A stretch of DNA of 64,000 nt from Mycobacteriales bacterium (GCA_035714365.1 DASTMB010000014.1:55720-119719); one strand, 5' to 3'. Positions 13,949 to 46,582 are shown, counted from the first letter of the stretch. Notes: a model not told the origin generated them from the sequence alone. Numbers and translations: made by a program.

Positions 13949-14025
13949 CCCGCCCAGCCTCGTCCCCGCACGGCCGCGTGGGCAACCTCCGGTTGGCGCG
14001 ATCACCGAACGGGAACGCCGCCCGC

Positions 14026-15483
14026 ATGGTGAACCGGCTGCACGACCTGGACGTGGAGGCCTACCGCCGCGTCCAGGCGACCAACACCCCGCCCTGGCTC
14101 GACACGGGCATCACCGCGCTCACGCACAGCGCCGACCACTCCAAGCTGTGGCTCGGGGCGGCGGCGCTGCTGGCGACGCGCGGGCGCCCCGGCCGCCGCG
14201 CGGCCCTGCGCGGGCTGATGTCGATCGGGCTGGCGTCGTTCGTCGCCAACGTCCCCGCGAAGTACGCGGTGCGGCGCGGCCGGCCCGACGTGCTGACGCT
14301 GGTACGCGCCGGCCGGGTGCCGCACCGCATCCCGAAGACCCGGTCGTTCCCGTCGGGGCACAGCGCGTCGGCGGCGGCGTTCGCCGTGGGCGCGGCGAGC
14401 GAGGTGCCGTCGCTGGCGGTGCCGCTGGGCGTGGCGGCCGCGGCCGTCGGCTACTCGCGCGTGCACACCGGCGTCCACTACCCGGGCGACGTGCTGGCCG
14501 GCTGGGCGCTGGGCGCCACGGTCGGCGTCGCGACGCGCTGGTGGTGGCCGCTGGCGCCGGTCGACCCGGCGACGGTGCGCGAACGGCTCGCGCCCACCTG
14601 CACCCGGCCGGTGCCGGGCGGCCGCGGCGTGACGATCGCCGTCAACGGCTCCGCCGGGCCGGACGCGGCGACGGCCGAGGAGGTGGCCGCCGCGATCCGG
14701 GAGGTGCTGCCCGCCGCCGACGTGGTCGCGCTGGACGAGCCGGAGCAGCTCGCGAAGACGCTGGAGGCGGCCGCGCCGGACGCCGTCGCGATCGGCGTGC
14801 GCGGCGGCGACGGGTCGGTCAACGCCGCCGCCGGCGTCGCCTACGACGCCGGGCGGCCGCTCGTCGTCGTGCCCGGCGGCACGCTGAACCACCTCGCCCG
14901 CGACCTCGGCCTGGAGGGGCTGGACGACGTCGCCGCGGCCGTCGAGAGCGGCTGCACGGTCGACATGGACCTCGCGGAGATCGACGGGCGGCCGTTCCTC
15001 AACACCGCGTCGTTCGGCTCGTACGCCGACCTGGTCGACGCGCGCGAACGCCTCGAGGACCGGGTCGGCAAGTGGCCCGCGCTGGTGCTCGCGCTCGGGC
15101 GCGTGCTGCGCCGCGGCGGCCCGGTGGAGGCCGAGATCGACGGCACGCCCCGCAAGGTGTGGGCCATCTTCGTCGGCAACTGCCGGTACGAGCCGGCCGG
15201 CTTCGCGCCCGCGTCCCGGCCGCGGCTGGACGACGGCACGCTCGACGTGCGGATCATCGACGCGGAGCGGCCGTTGCCGGCGCTGCGGCTGGTCCTGGCT
15301 CTGCTGACGGGCACGCTGGCGCGCTCGCGGGTGTACGAGCAGCGGTTCGCGACGGAGGTCCGCGTGCGGGTGGCCGAGCCGATCCGGCTCGCGTGCGACG
15401 GGGAGACGTTCGACGGGTCGCGGGAGTTCGTCATCCGCAAGCGGCCGCGGCCGCTGCGCGTGTACGCCCGGGCGGCGGACTGA
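14026..15483 (+). CDS. Fusion protein: PAP2 phosphatase domain plus a diacylglycerol-kinase-type catalytic domain (DAGK_cat)
   Basis: PAP2 motifs KxxxxxxRP / PSGHS / SRxxxxxHxxxD. 'GGDGSVN' and 'PGGTLNHLARDLG' kinase motifs. An alternative GTG start lies at 13978. Confidence 0.7.
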   Translation: MVNRLHDLDVEAYRRVQATNTPPWLDTGITALTHSADHSKLWLGAAALLATRGRPGRRAALRGLMSIGLASFVANVPAKYAVRRGRPDVLTLVRAGRVPHRIPKTRSFPSGHSASAAAFAVGAASEVPSLAVPLGVAAAAVGYSRVHTGVHYPGDVLAGWALGATVGVATRWWWPLAPVDPATVRERLAPTCTRPVPGGRGVTIAVNGSAGPDAATAEEVAAAIREVLPAADVVALDEPEQLAKTLEAAAPDAVAIGVRGGDGSVNAAAGVAYDAGRPLVVVPGGTLNHLARDLGLEGLDDVAAAVESGCTVDMDLAEIDGRPFLNTASFGSYADLVDARERLEDRVGKWPALVLALGRVLRRGGPVEAEIDGTPRKVWAIFVGNCRYEPAGFAPASRPRLDDGTLDVRIIDAERPLPALRLVLALLTGTLARSRVYEQRFATEVRVRVAEPIRLACDGETFDGSREFVIRKRPRPLRVYARAAD

Positions 15484-15487
15484 GCCG

Positions 15488-16096
15488 CTACGTCTCGCGG
15501 CGCAGCCAGCGCCCGGCGAGCACCAGGGCCGCCACGAGCACGACCACGCCGACGACGGTGAGCCACGGCCCGGCGCGGTCGTACGCCTCGCCGAGCACGA
15601 AGCCCGCGCCCACGACCTCGGCGAACGACAGCAGCCCGCCGGCCGCGTCCGCCAGGAGGAACCGCCGGGCCGGCATGTCCGACGCGCCCGCCGACGCCGC
15701 GACCACCGACGACGGGAACGCCGCCAGCCGGCCGAGCACGACCAGCGGGACGCCGCGGCGTTCGAGCAGCGCGCACATCGCCTTGACCCGCTTCGCCGGC
15801 AGCAGCCGCTTGGTCACGCGCGGCATCCGCTCCGGGTCGTAGCAGCGGCCGATGAAGTAGAACAGCCAGACGCCGCCGAGCAGCAGCGGCAGCGCGGCCA
15901 GCATGAGCAGCGGCAGCCCCACGTCGTGCCGGCGCAGCAGGAAGCCGCCCGCGAGCAGCACCTCCTTGGTCGGCCGGAGCAGCACGAGCAGCACGAAGTG
16001 GTCGCGGAACAGCGCCGGCGCCAGCGGGATCGCGACGATCCCGAGCACCGCGCGCGCGGCGGCGAGCCAGAGCAGCGGCGTGCGGGCACGCTCCAA
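15488..16096 (-). CDS. DedA/SNARE-associated (VTT domain) membrane protein
   Basis: Multi-TM. 'LGRCYDPERM...GRLAAFPSSVVAASAGASDMP' resembles DedA. Confidence 0.7.
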   Translation of the reverse strand: MERARTPLLWLAAARAVLGIVAIPLAPALFRDHFVLLVLLRPTKEVLLAGGFLLRRHDVGLPLLMLAALPLLLGGVWLFYFIGRCYDPERMPRVTKRLLPAKRVKAMCALLERRGVPLVVLGRLAAFPSSVVAASAGASDMPARRFLLADAAGGLLSFAEVVGAGFVLGEAYDRAGPWLTVVGVVVLVAALVLAGRWLRRET

Positions 16097-16122: not shown

Positions 16123-16926
16123 GTGTGCCTCACCGCCGGAACGGGCAAACCACGGGTCGTGAAGGGGCTGCTGCCGGACTCGGTGCGCCGCCGGTTCGAC
16201 CCGGGCGGGCGGTACGGCCTGCGCATCACGCTGTTCGCGTTCGCGCTGGTGCTGGTGGCGGTGCCGTTCGGCGTCCTGCTCCAGCAGGTCGTCTCCGAGG
16301 GGCCGCTGCTGCGCGTCGACCACGGGGTCGCGAACTCCGTCCACGAGTGGGTGGTGCGGCGCGGGCCGGGGTTCGTCGACGCGGTGCGGCTGGTGTCCTG
16401 GCTCGGCCGGCCGCCGTTCCTCTCGCTCGTCGCGGTGCTGGTCTGCGCGTTCCTGCTCCGGCGGGGGCGGACCCGCCTGGCGATCTTCGTCGTGACCACC
16501 GCGATCATGGGCGGGCTGGTCGACACGGCGGTCAAGAACCTCGTGCACCGGCCGCGGCCGGTGTTCGACCACCCGGTCGCCACGGCGATCGGCAAGAGCT
16601 TCCCGTCCGGGCACTCGATGTCGTCGGCGATCGTCTACGGCTCGCTGCTGCTCGTGCTGCTGCCGGCCATCCCGCGGCGGCGGCGCCCCTGGGCGATCGG
16701 CGGCACCGTGCTGCTCGTCCTCACCATCGCCGCGTCGCGGATCGCGCTGGGCGTCCACTTCCTCTCCGACGTCGTCGGCGGGCTGGTGCTGGGCGTCGCG
16801 TGGCTGGCCGCGAGCGTGGCGGCGTTCCGCATCTGGCGTACGGAGCGTGGTCGCAAGCCCACCCCGGTCGCGGCCGGTCTGGAGCCCGAGGCGGCGCGCG
16901 ACCTCAAGGTCGGCGCCGGCACCTGA
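16123..16926 (+). CDS. PAP2 family membrane phosphatase
   Basis: KNLVHRPRP / PSGHS / GVHFLSDV motifs. The GTG start is uncertain. Confidence 0.7.
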   Translation: MCLTAGTGKPRVVKGLLPDSVRRRFDPGGRYGLRITLFAFALVLVAVPFGVLLQQVVSEGPLLRVDHGVANSVHEWVVRRGPGFVDAVRLVSWLGRPPFLSLVAVLVCAFLLRRGRTRLAIFVVTTAIMGGLVDTAVKNLVHRPRPVFDHPVATAIGKSFPSGHSMSSAIVYGSLLLVLLPAIPRRRRPWAIGGTVLLVLTIAASRIALGVHFLSDVVGGLVLGVAWLAASVAAFRIWRTERGRKPTPVAAGLEPEAARDLKVGAGT

Positions 16927-17199
16927 TCCCGGTACGCGGGCTTCCGGGCCCTACGCGCGTTGTCACGCGTGGTGACCGGAACGCCGCACTCGTCCGGTTC
17001 GCGCTGGGCGGTTCGTCCGGTTCGTGAGCGCGACAGGGCGAACGGCCCGTAGCGAATTGGTCACAACGTGCTAGGGACGCGGGCTTCGGTCGCAGCCAGT
17101 ATTCACACGAACACAAGTAGCGAGGTGCCCCCACCCTGCGCCGTGGAGCCCTTACTGAGAGCAACTGCAGTACATCACTGCGTGACGGGAGACACTCTG

Positions 17200-19071
17200 A
17201 TGGGATCCGCAGCCCAGTCAGGTCGCCGCCTCCGCTGGGTGGCGTACGCCGTGAGCGCCGCCACCCTCGCCGCCCCCGCCTTCTCCGCCGCCGGCTCCGC
17301 CCCCCTGGCGAAGGGCAACACCTGGACGGCGGGCCGCCTCGGCACCAGCACCCAGCGCAGCGTGATCGTGCAGGCGCGTGCCGGGCACGAGTCCGCCGTC
17401 GCCGCCGCGATCCGCGCGGCCGGCGGCGTCGTCGACAAGCCGCTGCCGATCGTCACCGGCTTCGCCGCCCACGTCCCCGCCGCGGCCGTCGCCGCGCTGC
17501 GGGCCCGCCCCGACGTGCGCGACGTGACCGCCAACGACTCGGTGCGCTTCGCCAGCAACGTCTACGACGAGAGCACGGTCGCGTCGTCGTTCACGCGGAC
17601 CGCCGGCGCGACCGCCGCCTGGTCGCAGAACAACCTGGGCGAGGGCGTGGGCGTCGCGGTCATCGACACCGGCATCTCGCCGCAGAACGACTTCTCCGGT
17701 CGCCTGGTGCACGGCCCCGACCTCTCCGGCGAGGGCACCGTCTTCGACACCTACGGCCACGGCACGGTCATGGGCGGCATCATCGGCGGCAGCGGCGCCG
17801 ACTCGGCGAGCAACTCCGGCGGCTCGTACGCCGGTGCCGCGCCGAAGGCCACGCTGGTCGCGGTCAAGGTCGCCGGCCGCAACGGTGCCGCGGACGTCTC
17901 CACGATCCTCCAGGCGATGCACTGGGTCTCGGCGTACAAGGACCAGTTCAACATCCGGGTCCTCAACCTCTCCTGGGGCACCAACTCCACCAGCGACCCG
18001 GCGACCGACCCGCTGAACTACGCGGTCGAGCGGCTGTGGCGCCAGGGCATCGTCGTCGTCGTCGCGGCCGGCAACTCCGGCCCGGGGAGCGGCACCATCA
18101 CCAAGCCGGGCGACGACCCGGTCGTCATCACGGCCGGCGCGTACGACGACAAGGGCGACGCCGTCCTCAGCAACGACTCGATCCCGGCCTGGTCCTCGCG
18201 CGGCCCGACGGCGCAGGGCGTGAGCAAGCCGGACGTCGTCGCGCCGGGCCGCACGCTCATCGCGACGCGCTCGTTCGGCTCGGACGTCGAGAAGAACAAC
18301 CCGAAGGCGCTCGTCCCGCCGAGCTACATCAAGGGCAGCGGCACCTCGGAGGCCGCGGCCGTCACGTCCGGTATCGCCGCCCTGCTGGTCAAGGCGCACC
18401 CGGACTGGACGCCGGACCAGGTCAAGAAGGCGCTGAAGGGCACCGCGAACCCGCTGCCGAACACGCCCACCACGGCGCAGGGCACCGGCCGCATCCAGCT
18501 CGGCGCCGCGCTGGCGACCGACCCGGGCCCGGCGGCGCAGCAGACGTTCTCCTCCACCGGCCTCGGCCCGATCGAGGGCAGCCGCGGCACCAGCCACGTC
18601 TACGCCGACTGCCAGCAGAACGGCACCTGGACCGAGGTCAAGGGCGAGATCACCGACCACTGCCAGCCGTGGGACGGCACCGCCTGGACCGGCACCGCCT
18701 GGACCGGGACGGCGTGGACGGGCACCGCCTGGACCGGCACCGCCTGGACGGGCACGGCGTGGACCAACACCGGCTGGAGCGGCACGGCCTGGACCGGCAC
18801 CGCCTGGACCGGCGGCCAGTGGACCGGCACCGCCTGGACCGGCACGGCCTGGACCGGCACCGCCTGGACGGGCACGGCCTGGACCGGCACCGCCTGGACG
18901 GGGACGGCGTGGACCGGCACCGCCTGGACCGGTACCGCCTGGACGAGCGCCGAGTACGACGACACGCTGTTCCTCAACGCCTTCTGGGGCGCCCGGCCGA
19001 AGGCAGGGAAGCACGTGAACGGTGAGCGCAGCGAGTCCGTCCAGCTGGTGCGGTCCATCGGCATCGACTGA
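17200..19071 (+). CDS. Secreted S8 (subtilisin-like) serine peptidase with a C-terminal array of 18 tandem 'WTGTA' pentapeptide repeats
   Basis: Signal peptide. Catalytic triad contexts VIDTGI / HGTVMGG / GTSEAAAVTSG. Repeat tract seen in the translation. Confidence 0.85.
   Translation: MGSAAQSGRRLRWVAYAVSAATLAAPAFSAAGSAPLAKGNTWTAGRLGTSTQRSVIVQARAGHESAVAAAIRAAGGVVDKPLPIVTGFAAHVPAAAVAALRARPDVRDVTANDSVRFASNVYDESTVASSFTRTAGATAAWSQNNLGEGVGVAVIDTGISPQNDFSGRLVHGPDLSGEGTVFDTYGHGTVMGGIIGGSGADSASNSGGSYAGAAPKATLVAVKVAGRNGAADVSTILQAMHWVSAYKDQFNIRVLNLSWGTNSTSDPATDPLNYAVERLWRQGIVVVVAAGNSGPGSGTITKPGDDPVVITAGAYDDKGDAVLSNDSIPAWSSRGPTAQGVSKPDVVAPGRTLIATRSFGSDVEKNNPKALVPPSYIKGSGTSEAAAVTSGIAALLVKAHPDWTPDQVKKALKGTANPLPNTPTTAQGTGRIQLGAALATDPGPAAQQTFSSTGLGPIEGSRGTSHVYADCQQNGTWTEVKGEITDHCQPWDGTAWTGTAWTGTAWTGTAWTGTAWTGTAWTNTGWSGTAWTGTAWTGGQWTGTAWTGTAWTGTAWTGTAWTGTAWTGTAWTGTAWTGTAWTSAEYDDTLFLNAFWGARPKAGKHVNGERSESVQLVRSIGID
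18674..18945 (+). repeat. Approximately 18 near-perfect tandem copies of the 15-bp unit ggcaccgcctggacc (encoding GTAWT) inside the S8 peptidase gene
   Basis: Direct reading of the sequence. Units differ by only 1-3 nt. Confidence 0.9.
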
Positions 19072-19074
19072 GGA

Positions 19075-21381
19075 ATGACCGAACGCGAGAACGCCACCGC
19101 GACCGGGCCGGCCATGCCGCCCCGGTTGCGGTGGCTCCTCGTCGTCATGGCCACGGCGGGGCTGGCGGCGATCCTCGTCGCGGTCCCGTCGGCGGTGCGC
19201 GACCGCCCCGAGGCGGGCAACCTGCTGCTCGCCGTGGCGTTCTTCCTCATCGGCGACGTCGCGCTGATGAACATCCGGTTCGGCCGGAGCCGCTACACGT
19301 TCACCTGGGCCGAGCTGGCGCTGGTGTTCGGCCTGGTCATGCTGCCGCCGGGCTGGCTGGTCCTCGTCGCGACGCTCTGCGTCGCCGCGGGCCAGGTCAT
19401 GCTGCGCCGGCCGCTCGCCAAGGCCGTGTTCAACGTCTCGATCAACGCCGCCGGCGCCGGCCTCGCCTGGCTCACCGTCACCGTGCTCGGGCGGACGGCG
19501 ACCGAGCACGCGTCGCTGACGAGCAGCCGGGCCTGGCTCACGCTCGCCGCCGGCACCCTCGTCTTCGCCGTCTGGAGCAGCGGCACCGTCGGCATGGCGG
19601 TGGCGTTCTCGCAGGACCTGCCGGTGCGCGCCGTCCTGCGCAAGGGGGCGTTCCTCCAGGCCATGGTCTGGCTGGGCAACACCGTCGCCGGCGTCGGCGT
19701 CGCGATGGTCACCCAGCAGTCCGGCGGCGCGCTGATCGTGCTGCCGTTCTTCCTGGCCCTGCTCTACGCCGCCTACCGCGGCTACCTGCGCGCCGACGAG
19801 GACCGGGACACCTGGCAGGTGCTCCAGGACACCTCCCGCGACCTGTCCCGGCTGCGCCGCACCGAGATCGCCGAGGTCGTGCTGGACCGCGCGGCGGCGC
19901 TGTTCAAGGCCGACTTCGTGGAGCTGATGCTCGTCGACGACGAGCCGAGCGGCCGGGTCACGACCTGGCGCGGCACCGGCGACGAGACCCGGCTGCTGGA
20001 GGGGCGGTCGCTGGAGGACGCGGCCACGTTCTGGCCGCGCGCCCACTCGGAGCGGGAGCCGTACCAGCTCCTGCTGCGCCGGGCGCCCACGGCGCAGCGC
20101 CGCGAGCTGGAGTCGCTGGGGCTCGAGCAGTGCGTCGTCGTCCCGATCGCCACCACCGAACGCTGCCTCGGCACGCTGCGCGTCGGCTTCGCCGGCGTGG
20201 TGCGCATCCGCACCCGCGACCTCCAGGTGCTGCGGACGTTCGCCAACCAGCTCGCGACGTCGGTCGAGAACGCCCGCCTCTACGAGGAGATGCGCGAGGA
20301 GCGCACCAAGCTGAGCCGGGTCGTCGACAACACCTCCGACGGCATCCTCTCCGTCGACGCCCGCGGCCGGATCACGTCGTGGAACCCGGCCATGGCGCGC
20401 ATCTCGGGCCTGTCCGCGGAGAGCATCCTCGGCTCGTCGTTCACGCTCGGCCACGCCGGCACCGACGCCGACGGCACGCCGGTGTCGGCGCAGTGGCTGT
20501 GGGACAAGCTCGGCGGCGACGCGCAGGCGGAGGCGCAGGTCTCGATCGGCTCGAACGAGTCCGGCAAGCGGTGGCTGCACCTGTCGCTCGCCGCCGTGCG
20601 CTCCTCGACCGGCGTCATCGAGGTCGTCGTCGTGGTCGTCCGCGACGTCACCGCGCTGCGCGAGGCGGCGCAGGCGAAGGAGGAGTTCCTCGCCACCGTG
20701 TCGCACGAGCTCCGCACGCCGCTCACGTCGTTGCGCGGCTGGGTGTCGACGCTGCTGCGGCCGGAGTTCCAGCCGAACGAGGAGGAGCGCCGCGAGGTCC
20801 ACGAGCGGCTGATGCACCAGACCGGCCGGCTCCAGCGGCTGATCGAGGACGTGCTGTCGGTGTCGTCGATGGACCGCGGCCAGTTCGTCGTGCAGACCGT
20901 GCCCGTCGGCATCGACGAGGTCATCGAGAAGTCGCTCGCGGAGTTCCGCCGCCAGGTGCCGGACCGCCCGGTCGAGCACGTTCGCGCCGGCCTGGCCGGC
21001 ACCGCCCTCGCCGACGCGGGCCGCGTCGAGCAGGTCATCAACAACCTGGTCTCCAACGCCGACAAGTACTCGCCGCCGGAGACGCCGATCGAGGTGCGCG
21101 TCGCGCGCGAGGCGGACAAGGTCGTCGTCACCGTCTCCGACCACGGCTTCGGCATCCCGGAGGACCAGCGGGAGGCGGTGTTCGAGCGGTTCCACCGGCT
21201 CGGCCACCACATGACCCGCGAGGCGTCCGGCACCGGCCTCGGCCTGCACATCGCCCGGCGGCTGGTCGAGGCGATGGGCGGCCGGATCTGGGTCGACAGC
21301 CGCCTCGGGGAGGGGTCGACGTTCACGTTCACGCTGCCGGCCGCGCCGCTCGTCGCCAAGGGTGCCGACGTCGCGGTCTGA
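19075..21381 (+). CDS. Sensor histidine kinase: N-terminal multi-TM sensor, then GAF-like, PAS, HisKA and HATPase_c domains
   Basis: 'ATVSHELRTPLTSL' H-box. 'NLVSNADKYS' N-box. 'GTGLGLHIARRL' G2 box. Sits 4 nt after the protease stop. Confidence 0.85.
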   Translation: MTERENATATGPAMPPRLRWLLVVMATAGLAAILVAVPSAVRDRPEAGNLLLAVAFFLIGDVALMNIRFGRSRYTFTWAELALVFGLVMLPPGWLVLVATLCVAAGQVMLRRPLAKAVFNVSINAAGAGLAWLTVTVLGRTATEHASLTSSRAWLTLAAGTLVFAVWSSGTVGMAVAFSQDLPVRAVLRKGAFLQAMVWLGNTVAGVGVAMVTQQSGGALIVLPFFLALLYAAYRGYLRADEDRDTWQVLQDTSRDLSRLRRTEIAEVVLDRAAALFKADFVELMLVDDEPSGRVTTWRGTGDETRLLEGRSLEDAATFWPRAHSEREPYQLLLRRAPTAQRRELESLGLEQCVVVPIATTERCLGTLRVGFAGVVRIRTRDLQVLRTFANQLATSVENARLYEEMREERTKLSRVVDNTSDGILSVDARGRITSWNPAMARISGLSAESILGSSFTLGHAGTDADGTPVSAQWLWDKLGGDAQAEAQVSIGSNESGKRWLHLSLAAVRSSTGVIEVVVVVVRDVTALREAAQAKEEFLATVSHELRTPLTSLRGWVSTLLRPEFQPNEEERREVHERLMHQTGRLQRLIEDVLSVSSMDRGQFVVQTVPVGIDEVIEKSLAEFRRQVPDRPVEHVRAGLAGTALADAGRVEQVINNLVSNADKYSPPETPIEVRVAREADKVVVTVSDHGFGIPEDQREAVFERFHRLGHHMTREASGTGLGLHIARRLVEAMGGRIWVDSRLGEGSTFTFTLPAAPLVAKGADVAV

Positions 21382-21391
21382 GCCGACCGCG

Positions 21392-22276
21392 TCAGTCGTG
21401 CGTGAAGTCCGTCGTCGCCAGCGGGAGCGGCTCGGACGTGAGGATCCGCGCGCTCAGCCGGTACGTCCCGGCCGCCGGCGTGTAGCCGAAGTCGTCGTAG
21501 CCGTCCCAGCGGGTGTGCCAGTAGACGCAGTAGCCCGGGTCGATGGTGACGGTCTCCCCGTCGTGCACCACGGGCTGCCCGGCGGAGTACGTCCAGACGG
21601 TGTCGTTGTGCGCGACGTCGACCGCCGCGAAGTCGACGTCCGGGTGGCGGTCGAGGTCGATCGTCTTCGCGCCCGCGCCGACCGAGCGGCAGAGCGTGAG
21701 GTCGATCATGTACTTCTGGCCCGGCCCGGCCGGCGGCGTGACGCTGACGTAGGTGCACCAGTCCTCGGTCTGCGCCGAGAGGCAGTTGGCGTCGGTGGCG
21801 CTCTCCGGGTCGCGCGTGACCGGGACGCGGGACGCGTAGCGCGGCGAGCTCCCCACGCGGACCGGCGGGCGGGTCGGCACGAGCGCGCCGACCGGGCCGG
21901 TCGGGGGGAGGGTGCTGCCCGACGCGGAGCCCGAGGAGCGGCCGCTGGTGGGGGTGCGGCCGGTGCTGCCGGTCGTCGTGCCCGTGCCGTGGCCGGCCGC
22001 GGGGGTCACCGACGGCGTGGGCGTGGTGCGGTTGGTCGTGCGCGGGGCGCCGCCGTCGTTGACGACCGGCGGGTCGTTGGCGGGCCGGACCGTGTCGGTG
22101 CCGGTGCCCTGGTGGCTGACGACGCCGTAGCCGAGCGCGGCGACGAGCACGAGCGCGAGCGCGGAGGAGCCGCCCGTCTGCTTTCGGCGGCGCCGGCGAC
22201 CGCGGCGTACGGCGTCCTCGAAGCCGCCCGGCGGGGGCACCACCAGCGGGTACGAGCGGCGGGGCAGGTCAGTCAC
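21392..22276 (-). CDS. Putative anti-sigma factor / single-pass membrane protein (Pro/Thr-rich linker, Cys-containing C-terminal domain)
   Basis: Start overlaps the stop of the ECF sigma gene by 8 nt. One TM segment 'ALALVLVAALGYGVV'. Confidence 0.5.
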   Translation of the reverse strand: MTDLPRRSYPLVVPPPGGFEDAVRRGRRRRRKQTGGSSALALVLVAALGYGVVSHQGTGTDTVRPANDPPVVNDGGAPRTTNRTTPTPSVTPAAGHGTGTTTGSTGRTPTSGRSSGSASGSTLPPTGPVGALVPTRPPVRVGSSPRYASRVPVTRDPESATDANCLSAQTEDWCTYVSVTPPAGPGQKYMIDLTLCRSVGAGAKTIDLDRHPDVDFAAVDVAHNDTVWTYSAGQPVVHDGETVTIDPGYCVYWHTRWDGYDDFGYTPAAGTYRLSARILTSEPLPLATTDFTHD

Positions 22277-22808
22277 GCTGCCCCTCCAGGTTCGCGGCCA
22301 GCAGCTGTCGCGCCTCGTGCAGGCGCCGCTTCACCGTACCGACCGGGCGCTTCGTGAGCACGGCGACCTCGGTGACGGGCAGGTCGGCGTAGTAGTGCAG
22401 CAGGACGACCTCGCGCAGCCGCTCCGGGAGACGTTCGACCAGGTCGCGCAGCCACGGGTCGTGCACGGTCGCCTCGGCGGCGGGGCGGTGGCCGATCTCG
22501 TCGTAGATCTCCCGCTCGCGCTTGCTGCGGCGCCAGTGGCGGCGGGCCAGGTTGGTGGCCACGTAGTAGACGTACGCCTTCGGCTCCCGGACGCCGACCC
22601 AGCGGGCGAACAGCCGGGCGAACGCCTCCTGCGTGATGTCGCGGGCGAGCTGCACGTCGCCGGTGAGGGCGGTGCAGTACCCGGCCAGCCCGGCGTACTC
22701 GGCGCGGTAGAGGTCGCGGAACCCCTCCTCGCGCGACGTCGGCACCACCGCGGGGGCGGCGGCCACGTCGACGCGCGCATCAGCGCCGAGCACCAGCTCG
22801 GCGGTCAT
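22269..22808 (-). CDS. ECF (sigma-70 family) RNA polymerase sigma factor
   Basis: Region 2 'DITQEAFARLFARW' and region 4 'VVLLHYYADLPVTEVAVLTKRPVGTVKRRLHEAR'. The ORF could extend to 22904. Confidence 0.75.
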   Translation of the reverse strand: MTAELVLGADARVDVAAAPAVVPTSREEGFRDLYRAEYAGLAGYCTALTGDVQLARDITQEAFARLFARWVGVREPKAYVYYVATNLARRHWRRSKREREIYDEIGHRPAAEATVHDPWLRDLVERLPERLREVVLLHYYADLPVTEVAVLTKRPVGTVKRRLHEARQLLAANLEGQRD

Positions 22809-23025
22809 GCCCGTCGCTCCGTCACCGGTCACCAGCTCCTTCGTCCACGGGGATAGAGCCCCCGGGAGCGCGGGAGGTTCGGCGGGATATGGCAGCTGGG
22901 TCATGACGAGGTATCCCGTTCGACACGGTCACCCTCTGCTCCTGCGCGAGCCGTTTCGGTGTCCGATTCGTCGGGGATCCCGCAATCGACCGACTACACC
23001 CAGTCACCGCAGAGAGGTCCCCGCG

Positions 23026-23979
23026 ATGAACACGACGTTCCGGCTCTCCTCCCGAGCCGTCGCGCTGCCCGCGACGGCGCTGCTCCTCGGCACCGCCTTC
23101 GCCGCCCCCGCGCTCGCCGGCGACGGCGCCAAGGGCACCCACGGCCAGGGTGGGCAGCACGCGAACGGCGGCCGGTCCGGAGAGGCGCGGGGCGGCTCCG
23201 GCGGGTCCGGTGCCGCCGCGCAGGGCGACCCGGCCGGCAACAACGGGACGTTCAAGGTCGACGGCCTCGCCTGGAGCGACGGCATGGGGAACGAGCCCCA
23301 CGTCTCCTGCGGCTTCCGGCTGCGCTTCTTCGGCTTCGACGAGGGCCAGACGGGCGACATCACGATCGCCGGCCAGGCGCCGTCCGGCTCCGGCGTCGTC
23401 AGCTCGAAGACCGGCGTCGAGATCAGCGACGACGCGGCCGGCGGCGGCCCGAACGACGTCGACGCCGTGGTGGAGTACACCGCCGGCGACCTGGACCTCA
23501 GCGGCCTCACCGCGCAGCCGAAGCAGGGCTACCACCTCAAGGTGACGCTCACCACGGACGCGCCGGGCGGCGTCAAGCACAAGGTGTTCTGGTACGAGCC
23601 GTGCGCGACCACGCCCCCGGCCGGCGAGACCGGCGGCACCGGCGGCACCGGCGGCACCGGCGGTACGGGCGGCACGGGCGGCACCGGCGGCGAGGTCGGC
23701 GGCGTCACCGTCACCACCCCCGGCACCGTCACCACCCCGGCCTCCGGTACCCAGGACCGCACCGAGGTGCTCGGCGTGAAGCTCGAGCGCACCGACGTGG
23801 CGACCGCCACGGCGCCCCGCCAGGGCGCGCAGGTGCTCGGCACGACGCTGACCCGCAGCGGCGGGCTGCCGTTCACCGGCGCCGTCACGACCGCGCTGCT
23901 CGCGGTCGCGGGCGCCCTCGTCGCGGCCGGTGGCGCGGTGCTCGCGCTCGGCCGGCGCCGCGCGCGGCACGTCGCGTAG
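23026..23979 (+). CDS. Secreted cell-surface protein with a C-terminal LPxTG-like sortase signal (LPFTG, hydrophobic segment, RRRAR)
   Basis: Signal peptide. Gly-rich GGT tract. C-terminal sorting signal. Confidence 0.7.
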   Translation: MNTTFRLSSRAVALPATALLLGTAFAAPALAGDGAKGTHGQGGQHANGGRSGEARGGSGGSGAAAQGDPAGNNGTFKVDGLAWSDGMGNEPHVSCGFRLRFFGFDEGQTGDITIAGQAPSGSGVVSSKTGVEISDDAAGGGPNDVDAVVEYTAGDLDLSGLTAQPKQGYHLKVTLTTDAPGGVKHKVFWYEPCATTPPAGETGGTGGTGGTGGTGGTGGTGGEVGGVTVTTPGTVTTPASGTQDRTEVLGVKLERTDVATATAPRQGAQVLGTTLTRSGGLPFTGAVTTALLAVAGALVAAGGAVLALGRRRARHVA

Positions 23980-34173: not shown

Positions 34174-34249
34174 GGGCGCGTAGCTCAGCGGAACGAGCAC
34201 TCGGCTTACACCCGAGCGGTCGCAGGTTCGACCCCTGCCGCGCCCACCA
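34174..34249 (+). tRNA. tRNA-Val (anticodon TAC), including the encoded CCA
   Basis: Cloverleaf folded by hand: acceptor GGGCGCG/CGCGCCC, D arm GCTC/GAGC, anticodon stem CTCGG/CCGAG with loop CTTACAC, T arm GCAGG-TTCGACC-CCTGC. Confidence 0.85.
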
Positions 34250-46080: not shown

Positions 46081-46477
46081 CGAACGAGTCGGCCGGACGG
46101 TCGCGTCGGGGCAACCCGCCGAGGAAAGTCCGGGCTCCACAGGGCAGGGTGGTCGGTAACACCGACCCGGGGTGACCCGCGGGACAGTGCCACAGAGAAC
46201 AGACCGCCGTCGCGCTCCGGCGCGGCGGCAAGGGTGAAACGGTGGTGTAAGAGACCACCAGCGCCCCGGGTGACCGGGGCGGCTCGGCAAACCCCACCCG
46301 GAGCAAGGTCGAAAGGGCGCCGGCTTCGGCCGGAGCCTGCGCAGGCGTTCGAGGGTGGCCCGCCCGAGCCTGCGGGTGGACCGCTAGAGGTCGCCGGCAA
46401 CGGCGACCCGAGATGGATGACCGTCCGTGGTGGCTCCGGCCGCCACGACAGGACCCGGCTTACAGGCCGGCTCGTTC
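46081..46477 (+). ncRNA. rnpB: RNase P RNA (bacterial type A)
   Basis: Universal 'GAGGAAAGTCCGGGCTCCACAGGGCAGGGTG' core, 'ACAGAGAACAGACCGCC', 'GGTGAAACGGTGGTGTAAGAGACCACCAG' and 'AGATGGATGACCGTCC' elements. 5'/3' P1 pairing cgaacgagtcggcc / ggccggctcgttcg. Confidence 0.85.
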
Positions 46478-46582
46478 GCCCCACCTCTCCGGACCGTGTT
46501 CGGAGAGGCCGTTTCCGCAGGTCAGAGGCCCTTTCGCGGGTCCGCCGTCATGTCGGCCCGTTGCCTCCTGTAAGGCTGAGTA

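Follow-up and report, generated by a model that had tools for sequence, protein, structure and literature searches.

A stretch of 64,000 nucleotides (nt) from a Mycobacteriales bacterium (GCA_035714365.1, DASTMB010000014.1:55720-119719), called the window below, carries at 17200..19071 on the plus strand a gene for a 623-residue subtilase of peptidase family S8 whose C-terminal domain is built of pentapeptides led by tryptophan. A gene for a 768-residue sensor histidine kinase follows directly at 19075..21381 (+). The Trp repeat is probably the core of a conserved non-catalytic domain of an exported subtilase, encoded within a conserved protease-sensor gene module. The protease core is ordinary; what sets it apart is a tail that resembles pentapeptide repeats and the conserved gene pair to which it belongs. 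More than 1000 S8 proteases of uncultured soil Actinomycetota carry this tail domain, for which Pfam has no model.

The original prediction, made from the sequence alone, had recognized an S8 peptidase at this place, and the match of the open reading frame (ORF) to PF00082 bears it out (residues 147-430, E-value 2.4e-44, 152.2 bits against a gathering cutoff of 21.8). The encoded protein is identical to P0121 (HEU0130080.1). A GTG at 17068 could lengthen the ORF, but the homologues and the NCBI model P0121 begin at the ATG. A GGGAG motif lies about 8 nt 5′ of this start codon, and scans of the region 5′ of the gene with Rfam and for promoters returned neither an RNA element nor a sigma-70-like promoter.

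The protein begins with a signal-like region (residues 1-49, 17200..17346 (+), limits approximate) comprising RRLR and an Ala-rich hydrophobic stretch. The family consensus here is M..R..R..A...A...L, and AlphaFold assigns the segment a predicted local distance difference test score (pLDDT) below 50. The subtilase would be exported, as proposed because this basic and Ala-rich hydrophobic N-terminus and two invariant cysteines at the start of the repeat domain fit such a route. A propeptide resembling I9 inhibitors follows at residues about 50-118 (17347..17553, +), modeled confidently as a beta-alpha-beta unit and supported by PF05922 matches in three homologues (P0002, P0010 and P0023). The S8 catalytic domain occupies residues 147-430 (17638..18489, +). 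Its triad can be read directly in the sequence as D156 (17665-17667), H187 (17758-17760) and S383 (18346-18348), all on the plus strand, and these residues in that order, together with the oxyanion residue N292, are invariant in 87 aligned sequences. Judged by triad and domain, the protein is a catalytically intact S8 subtilase. AlphaFold2, run with the family alignment, places the propeptide and the S8 core above a pLDDT of 90, and the confident part of the full-length model (pLDDT about 90) extends to approximately residue 495.

Foldseek identifies this part as a subtilisin fold, with a target-normalised TM-score of 0.9 to subtilisins. The best match in both sequence (E 1.5e-51) and structure (pro-form 3afg, E 2.5e-30) is Tk-SP of Thermococcus kodakarensis, a subtilase that has a C-terminal extension of its own (PDB 3afg, 9ues) and shares the N-propeptide and the S8 core. 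However, the matches to 3afg and 9ues stop at query residue 438 and thus cover propeptide and catalytic core only; no subtilase in the PDB has a part that aligns to the Trp-repeat tail. The best NCBIfam match is TIGR03921 (E 2.6e-42), which describes the mycosins, S8 proteases of the type VII secretion system (T7SS) that are likewise actinobacterial and exported, as is predicted here. Identity as a mycosin was rejected: the score of 145.2 bits falls below the cutoff of 278.75, and no hydrophobic segment occurs after residue 399, so a C-terminal anchor is missing. Six flanking ORFs were compared with Pfam, and no T7SS protein is among them.

The tail domain opens with an N-cap (18559..18669, +), which the confident part of the model still covers and whose invariant columns read GLG.IE.SRG...C...GE....C.PW. 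Its cysteines, C471 and C488, are invariant in the family and presumably form a disulfide. Then come 19 W-x-G-x-x pentapeptides (18670..18954, +), arranged as nine units, a central irregular unit WTGGQ (unit 10, 18805..18819, +) and nine further units. The domain closes with a conserved cap and tail (18955..19068, +; YDD..FLNAFWGARPKAGKHVNGERSE...), where F151, A154, F155, G157, P160, G168 and E169, in the numbering of alignment A2, are invariant or nearly so. This last segment is modeled at a pLDDT of 54-65. An array of 18 copies had been claimed from the sequence, and the repeat is real: Tandem Repeats Finder (TRF) reports a period of 15 nt and 18.0 copies at 18675-18944. Read in codon register, it nevertheless consists of 19 unbroken W-led pentapeptides, 14 of them WTGTA and the others WDGTA, WTNTG, WSGTA, WTGGQ and WTSAE. 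Its occurrence is far above chance.

Conservation of this tail was followed in 1785 homologous proteins found at E <1e-10, the best 120 of which were analyzed in detail. These are 56-76% identical to the window protein, come from metagenome-assembled genomes (MAGs) of Frankiaceae, Mycobacteriales, Acidimicrobiales and relatives, and bear the JGI label ‘AprX’. Every one of the 120 has the Trp array of period five, and 95 have 18-20 units. The central W.GG. unit is present in 105, of which 84 have exactly nine units before it and 82 have nine or ten after it. In 87 aligned homologues every fifth column holds an invariant or nearly invariant Trp, with Gly usually two residues later. The flanks are conserved as well, the N-cap pattern on the one side and [ST]AEY...FLTAFWG.RP...GE on the other. 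Array length is fixed in a given clade but not over the family at large.

An exhaustive profile search recovered 1503 cluster representatives at E <1e-10. Ten top W-array matches were scanned with Pfam: nine are S8 peptidases, some with additional NHL, beta-helix or FIMAH domains, and the remaining one, which has 93 WNG[QL]V units ahead of GPS and 7tm_2 domains, resembles adhesion GPCRs and is unrelated. A word-indexed homologue search with the C-terminal domain gave no candidates, probably owing to its handling of low complexity. Neither Pfam nor NCBIfam nor the searchable literature gave any record of the Trp-centered tail, of its layout and evolution or of its pairing with a sensor, and literature searches with the repeat strings and with subtilase, pentapeptide and tryptophan found nothing relevant.

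Other Trp arrays of period five exist whose variable residues are bulky or charged, including WDGIS x36, WDGMS x28, WTGID x24, WTGLD x21, WIGLD x23 and WCGVV x23. Such arrays occur among P0153, P0177, P0179, P0171, P0183, P0207 and P0195, of which P0177 and P0171 are confirmed S8 peptidases. Some short Trp-array proteins may be fragments or calls in the wrong frame.

A profile of the C-terminal domain built from alignment A2 has 15 matches in the PDB, all of them pentapeptide-repeat proteins or designs derived from such proteins. They include Qnr, Rfr32, TL15, an McbG-like protein and beta1, with whole-sequence E-values from 1.4e-5 to 0.8, and the two best alignments set Trp over the central Leu/Phe and Gly over Gly. 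One homologue with a GANWS variant of the repeat (P0023) passes PF00805 at 29 bits. The AlphaFold2 model of the isolated domain contains short strands at a spacing of five residues, at low confidence. The best guess from these sequence comparisons is a beta-solenoid related to the pentapeptide-repeat fold. Known members of that class (PF00805, Rfr fold; Qnr, MfpA, Rfr32) appear to share with the array tandem units of five residues in which position i-2 is small, the center large and hydrophobic and i+2 Gly/Ser. They differ in that the array of the window type has Trp in every center, near-identical units within a protein, the 9+1+9 layout, a Cys cap and tail of its own and fusion to a predicted secreted S8 protease. 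Furthermore, the window array scores too low for Pfam, and its AlphaFold models lack the Rfr fold.

The gene adjoining the protease had been called a GAF-PAS histidine kinase lying 4 nt downstream; the kinase is indeed directly 3′, but the spacer between the subtilase stop codon (19069-19071) and the sensor ATG (19075) measures 3 nt. The input module of the sensor (19075..20298, +) combines a polytopic membrane region with short loops, seen by hydropathy at residues ~20-238, and a GAF domain at residues 263-399. A Pfam scan of sensor residues 1-260 gave no match. The output part (20308..21345, +) consists of PAS (412-525), HisKA (534-602) and HATPase_c (647-757) domains, all assigned by Pfam, and its scores of 65 bits to PF00512 and 113 bits to PF02518 identify it as a kinase.

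Linkage of the two genes was surveyed by tblastn of the module across genome loci of relatives, of which the best 80 of 126 were covered, all 80 in MAGs. Among the 71 evaluable related loci (68 distinct), a homologue of the transmembrane (TM) plus GAF module lies directly 3′ of the protease gene on the same strand in 69 (66 of the distinct loci), and in the two loci where none was detectable a kinase or GGDEF-EAL gene still occupies that place. The output varies, being GGDEF-EAL in 47 loci and PAS plus kinase in 20. The TM+GAF part of the window sensor is 38% and 29% identical (E 3e-58 and 8e-40) to the N-terminal parts of two Acidimicrobiales GGDEF-EAL proteins, at whose loci the remaining flanking genes are unrelated to those of the window; the flanks differ between orders. 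A word-indexed search with the TM+GAF module yielded six matches only and was uninformative. The predicted linkage of protease and kinase holds up, on the strength of this conserved pairing, the 3-nt spacer and a junction at which no terminator-like site was seen. Because the module is conserved next to the protease while the other flanks and the output vary, the unit under selection would be the pair of Trp-tailed protease and membrane/GAF input module, with an interchangeable output domain. The strictness of this pairing and the swapping of the output between phosphorelay and cyclic di-GMP (c-di-GMP) suggest that proteolysis outside the cell provides input to a second-messenger or two-component pathway.

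These observations can be drawn together in a model in which the tail, consisting of the cap, 19 Trp pentapeptides (9 + irregular W.GG. + 9) and the FL.AFWG..P...GE segment, would be a Trp-centered variant in sequence of the bacterial pentapeptide repeat A(D/N)LxG. The two-Cys cap may pack on the protease domain, and the array most likely forms a regular rod of beta-solenoid type that would scaffold or target the protease outside the cell, at the cell envelope. Selection on the protein would hold the length and layout of the array, while recombination within the array would homogenize the variable positions from time to time. The protease gene would be translationally coupled to that of the polytopic-membrane and GAF sensor, forming a two-gene module conserved across Actinomycetota classes, whose output is a histidine kinase in the window and in some relatives and a c-di-GMP enzyme of the GGDEF-EAL type in others. 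Extracytoplasmic proteolysis might in this way be functionally tied to sensor signaling, in either direction.

Several results weigh against this model. The PDB matches are weak per stretch (E about 0.02), and a period of five together with Gly/Ala could by itself explain them. The C-terminal 163 residues of the window protein have no Pfam pentapeptide match even at E 10. Structure prediction of the repeat region, which the original prediction had offered as a check, gave no confident fold: AlphaFold2 scores the array at a pLDDT of 26-35 when the full-length protein is modeled and of 50-62 when the domain is modeled alone, and Foldseek finds no significant match for this second, low-confidence model. 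Trp at every central position may not suit the canonical core of a pentapeptide repeat. In distant members the array has 6-15 or 22-24 units and is sometimes interrupted, so its length is not universally fixed, and the tie between protease and sensor is drawn from gene conservation. A beta-solenoid, also suggested by the original prediction, is accordingly plausible rather than proven: the profile matches point to pentapeptide-repeat proteins only, while AlphaFold2 offers no confident fold. With Trp at each central position of the repeat and no confident model, the domain makes a useful test case for structure prediction.

The very low pLDDT of the array and the missing Foldseek match would also suit a disordered, Trp-studded sticky segment through which the enzyme is tethered at the membrane interface, on the cell wall or on a substrate that is hydrophobic or a polysaccharide. 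The uncharged composition of W, G and small polar residues and the tolerance for 6-24 units in distant members agree with such a tether. It is nonetheless an unlikely account, if one that keeps some weight, since the strictly periodic invariant W and G, the conserved central unit and the caps imply a defined geometry, the PDB profile matches are all to beta-solenoid proteins, and the domain-only model has strands with a five-residue period.

A bolder proposal is that protease and sensor together make up a self-contained extracellular signaling device of a kind not yet described, in which either released Trp pentapeptides are sensed or a Trp-ladder solenoid docks on the TM-GAF receptor. This is improbable on present evidence; were it true, repeat sequence and receptor would, in both versions, co-diversify between lineages. 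The first version has a more specific form, with the array as a multi-copy precursor in which the fused subtilase cuts after each Trp and frees about 18 peptides (e.g. TGTAW) that the adjacent sensor detects. Large hydrophobic P1 residues are commonly accepted by subtilases. The units are uniform within a protein and quickly divergent between lineages, as in pheromone or neuropeptide polyproteins; the sensor, an obligatory partner, exposes only short loops outside the cytoplasm, as membrane-embedded peptide sensors do; and the array lacks a confident predicted fold. However, a fixed count, a conserved irregular unit 10 and caps have no obvious use in a precursor, no spacer or recognition sequences separate the units, and the kinase has an ordinary HisKA domain that is not of the Agr type, all of which makes a peptide precursor very doubtful.

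Across the family, an average of 71% of the units equal the consensus of their own protein. Between proteins, 26 different consensus units occur (WTGSA, WTGSS, WTGAS, WTGNS, WTGTS, WTGTA and others), and only 9.6% of protein pairs have a common one. P0013 and P0128, for instance, are 83% identical overall, but all their regular units differ, with GAS in one and GSS in the other. Because units are uniform within a protein and divergent between proteins, the repeat units of the family are in concerted evolution. At the DNA level, nucleotide identity among the units of an array ranges from 0.74 to 1.00. Most arrays fall between 0.74 and 0.90, with many codon versions for identical peptides, and near-perfect arrays (0.96-1.00) occur in L030, L081, L007, L023 and L033. 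The simplest reading is that homogenization by recombination is episodic and followed by synonymous decay, with selection keeping the unit number and the central odd unit. The family thus presents a case of repeat evolution in which homogenization recurs while unit number and one irregular unit stay put.

The window array is in the decayed state. Its DNA units had been described as almost invariant, but TRF matches amount to 80%, only 7 of the 19 units match exactly and pairs of units are on average 0.81 identical. Eight codon versions are used for the 14 WTGTA units, and neighboring units are never identical. The longest exact repeat inside the array is 32 nt, its two copies lying 120 nt apart, and the long perfect tandem tract that marks a contingency locus is absent. 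The array shows as much mixing at third codon positions as other parts of the gene do, and the usage of Thr, Gly and Ala codons does not differ between array and remainder (chi-square p 0.78, 0.71 and 0.11). Homologues of only 60-76% identity have the 19-unit layout as well, central GG unit included. The array is probably an old copy with scrambled synonymous sites, and the recent expansion or ongoing slippage that had been proposed for it is not supported.

A comparison of copy number, also put forward in the original prediction, gave a mixed answer. The same protein with 19 units is found in three assemblies (P0001 and P0121/L087), and the window’s own 90%-identity cluster has 19 as well. 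L087 is 100% identical to the window over 7.9 kb and so carries no strain-level information. An exact-pattern scan of metagenome contigs, using the unique sequence just 5′ of the array, found no strain variants. Unit numbers do vary in some other 90%-identity clusters (19/16/20/14, 22/20/14/20, 19/15 and 19/18), and most of the deviating members belong to the most perfect arrays of short-read metagenomes, in which collapse of repeats during assembly is expected and inseparable from real variation. An unstable, recently expanded repeat, whose stalk length varies between strains through slipped-strand mispairing or recombination, could draw on these clusters, on the few lineages with near-perfect DNA and on the differing lengths of more distant subfamilies, but it is quite improbable given window units only 81% alike, synonymous sites at the gene background without identical neighbors, a 9+1+9 layout that persists over homologues of 56-76% identity, the 19 units of all three assemblies and the collapse to be expected in most deviating members.

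Intragenic homogenization has been described for spider silk spidroins (PMC3933166). The two cases are alike in that units are homogeneous within a gene and divergent between genes. Unlike spidroins, the Trp array is short (95 residues) and length-constrained, has a conserved irregular unit and belongs to a bacterial enzyme.

In some lineages, alternate units are much more alike than neighbors (L050, L017, L015, L003/L010, L013 and L085). In L050, unit identity rises from 0.64 at lag 1 to 0.97 at lag 2, which suggests that a 30-nt block of two units is the unit of duplication or conversion in lineages such as this one. Over all arrays the two-unit periodicity is weak (p 0.019 for lag 1 versus lag 2), but it is strong in L050, L017 and L003. 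Three further ideas about the array were set aside. Pairing of its halves across the GG unit as a hairpin found no backing, the unit counts before and after it being uncorrelated (Spearman -0.09, p 0.34). Selection against identical adjacent units is not apparent, with a family total of 90 observed against 75 expected, a non-significant difference. Units at the same position in the window and in its closest GTAWT homologue, L086, are 0.87 identical against 0.80 for other positions, an excess that stems mostly from the special units; positional orthology was not used.

The protease gene is immediately preceded by lipid-related genes, namely a PAP2-DAGK fusion (13978-15483, +), a VTT/DedA gene (15488-16096, -) and a PAP2 gene (16123-16926, +), which remain beside it in close relatives. 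Convergent to the protease-kinase pair lie a 294-residue ORF and a gene for an extracytoplasmic function (ECF) sigma factor, at 21392-22276 (-) and 22269-22904 (-), with an 8-nt overlap. In the 294-residue product a single TM segment is accompanied by a linker rich in Ser/Thr/Pro/Gly and by a weak match (E 0.007) to BsuPI, a subtilisin-inhibitor-like domain; two relatives, L005 and L086, give a stronger match. The product could be an anti-sigma factor with an outer domain that interacts with the subtilase. Synteny of the sigma factor gene and this ORF is kept in Frankiales/Mycobacteriales relatives and not in Acidimicrobiales. A 390-residue ORF at 22807-23979 (+) encodes a signal-like N-terminus, a (GGT)n-encoded run of TGGTGGTGGTGG residues and a C-terminal sortase anchor of LPFTG, TM segment and RRRAR, with a weak PF00746 match. 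Farther away, the window contains a tRNA gene (34174-34246, +) and a bacterial RNase P RNA of class A (46085-46478, +; 276.8 bits).

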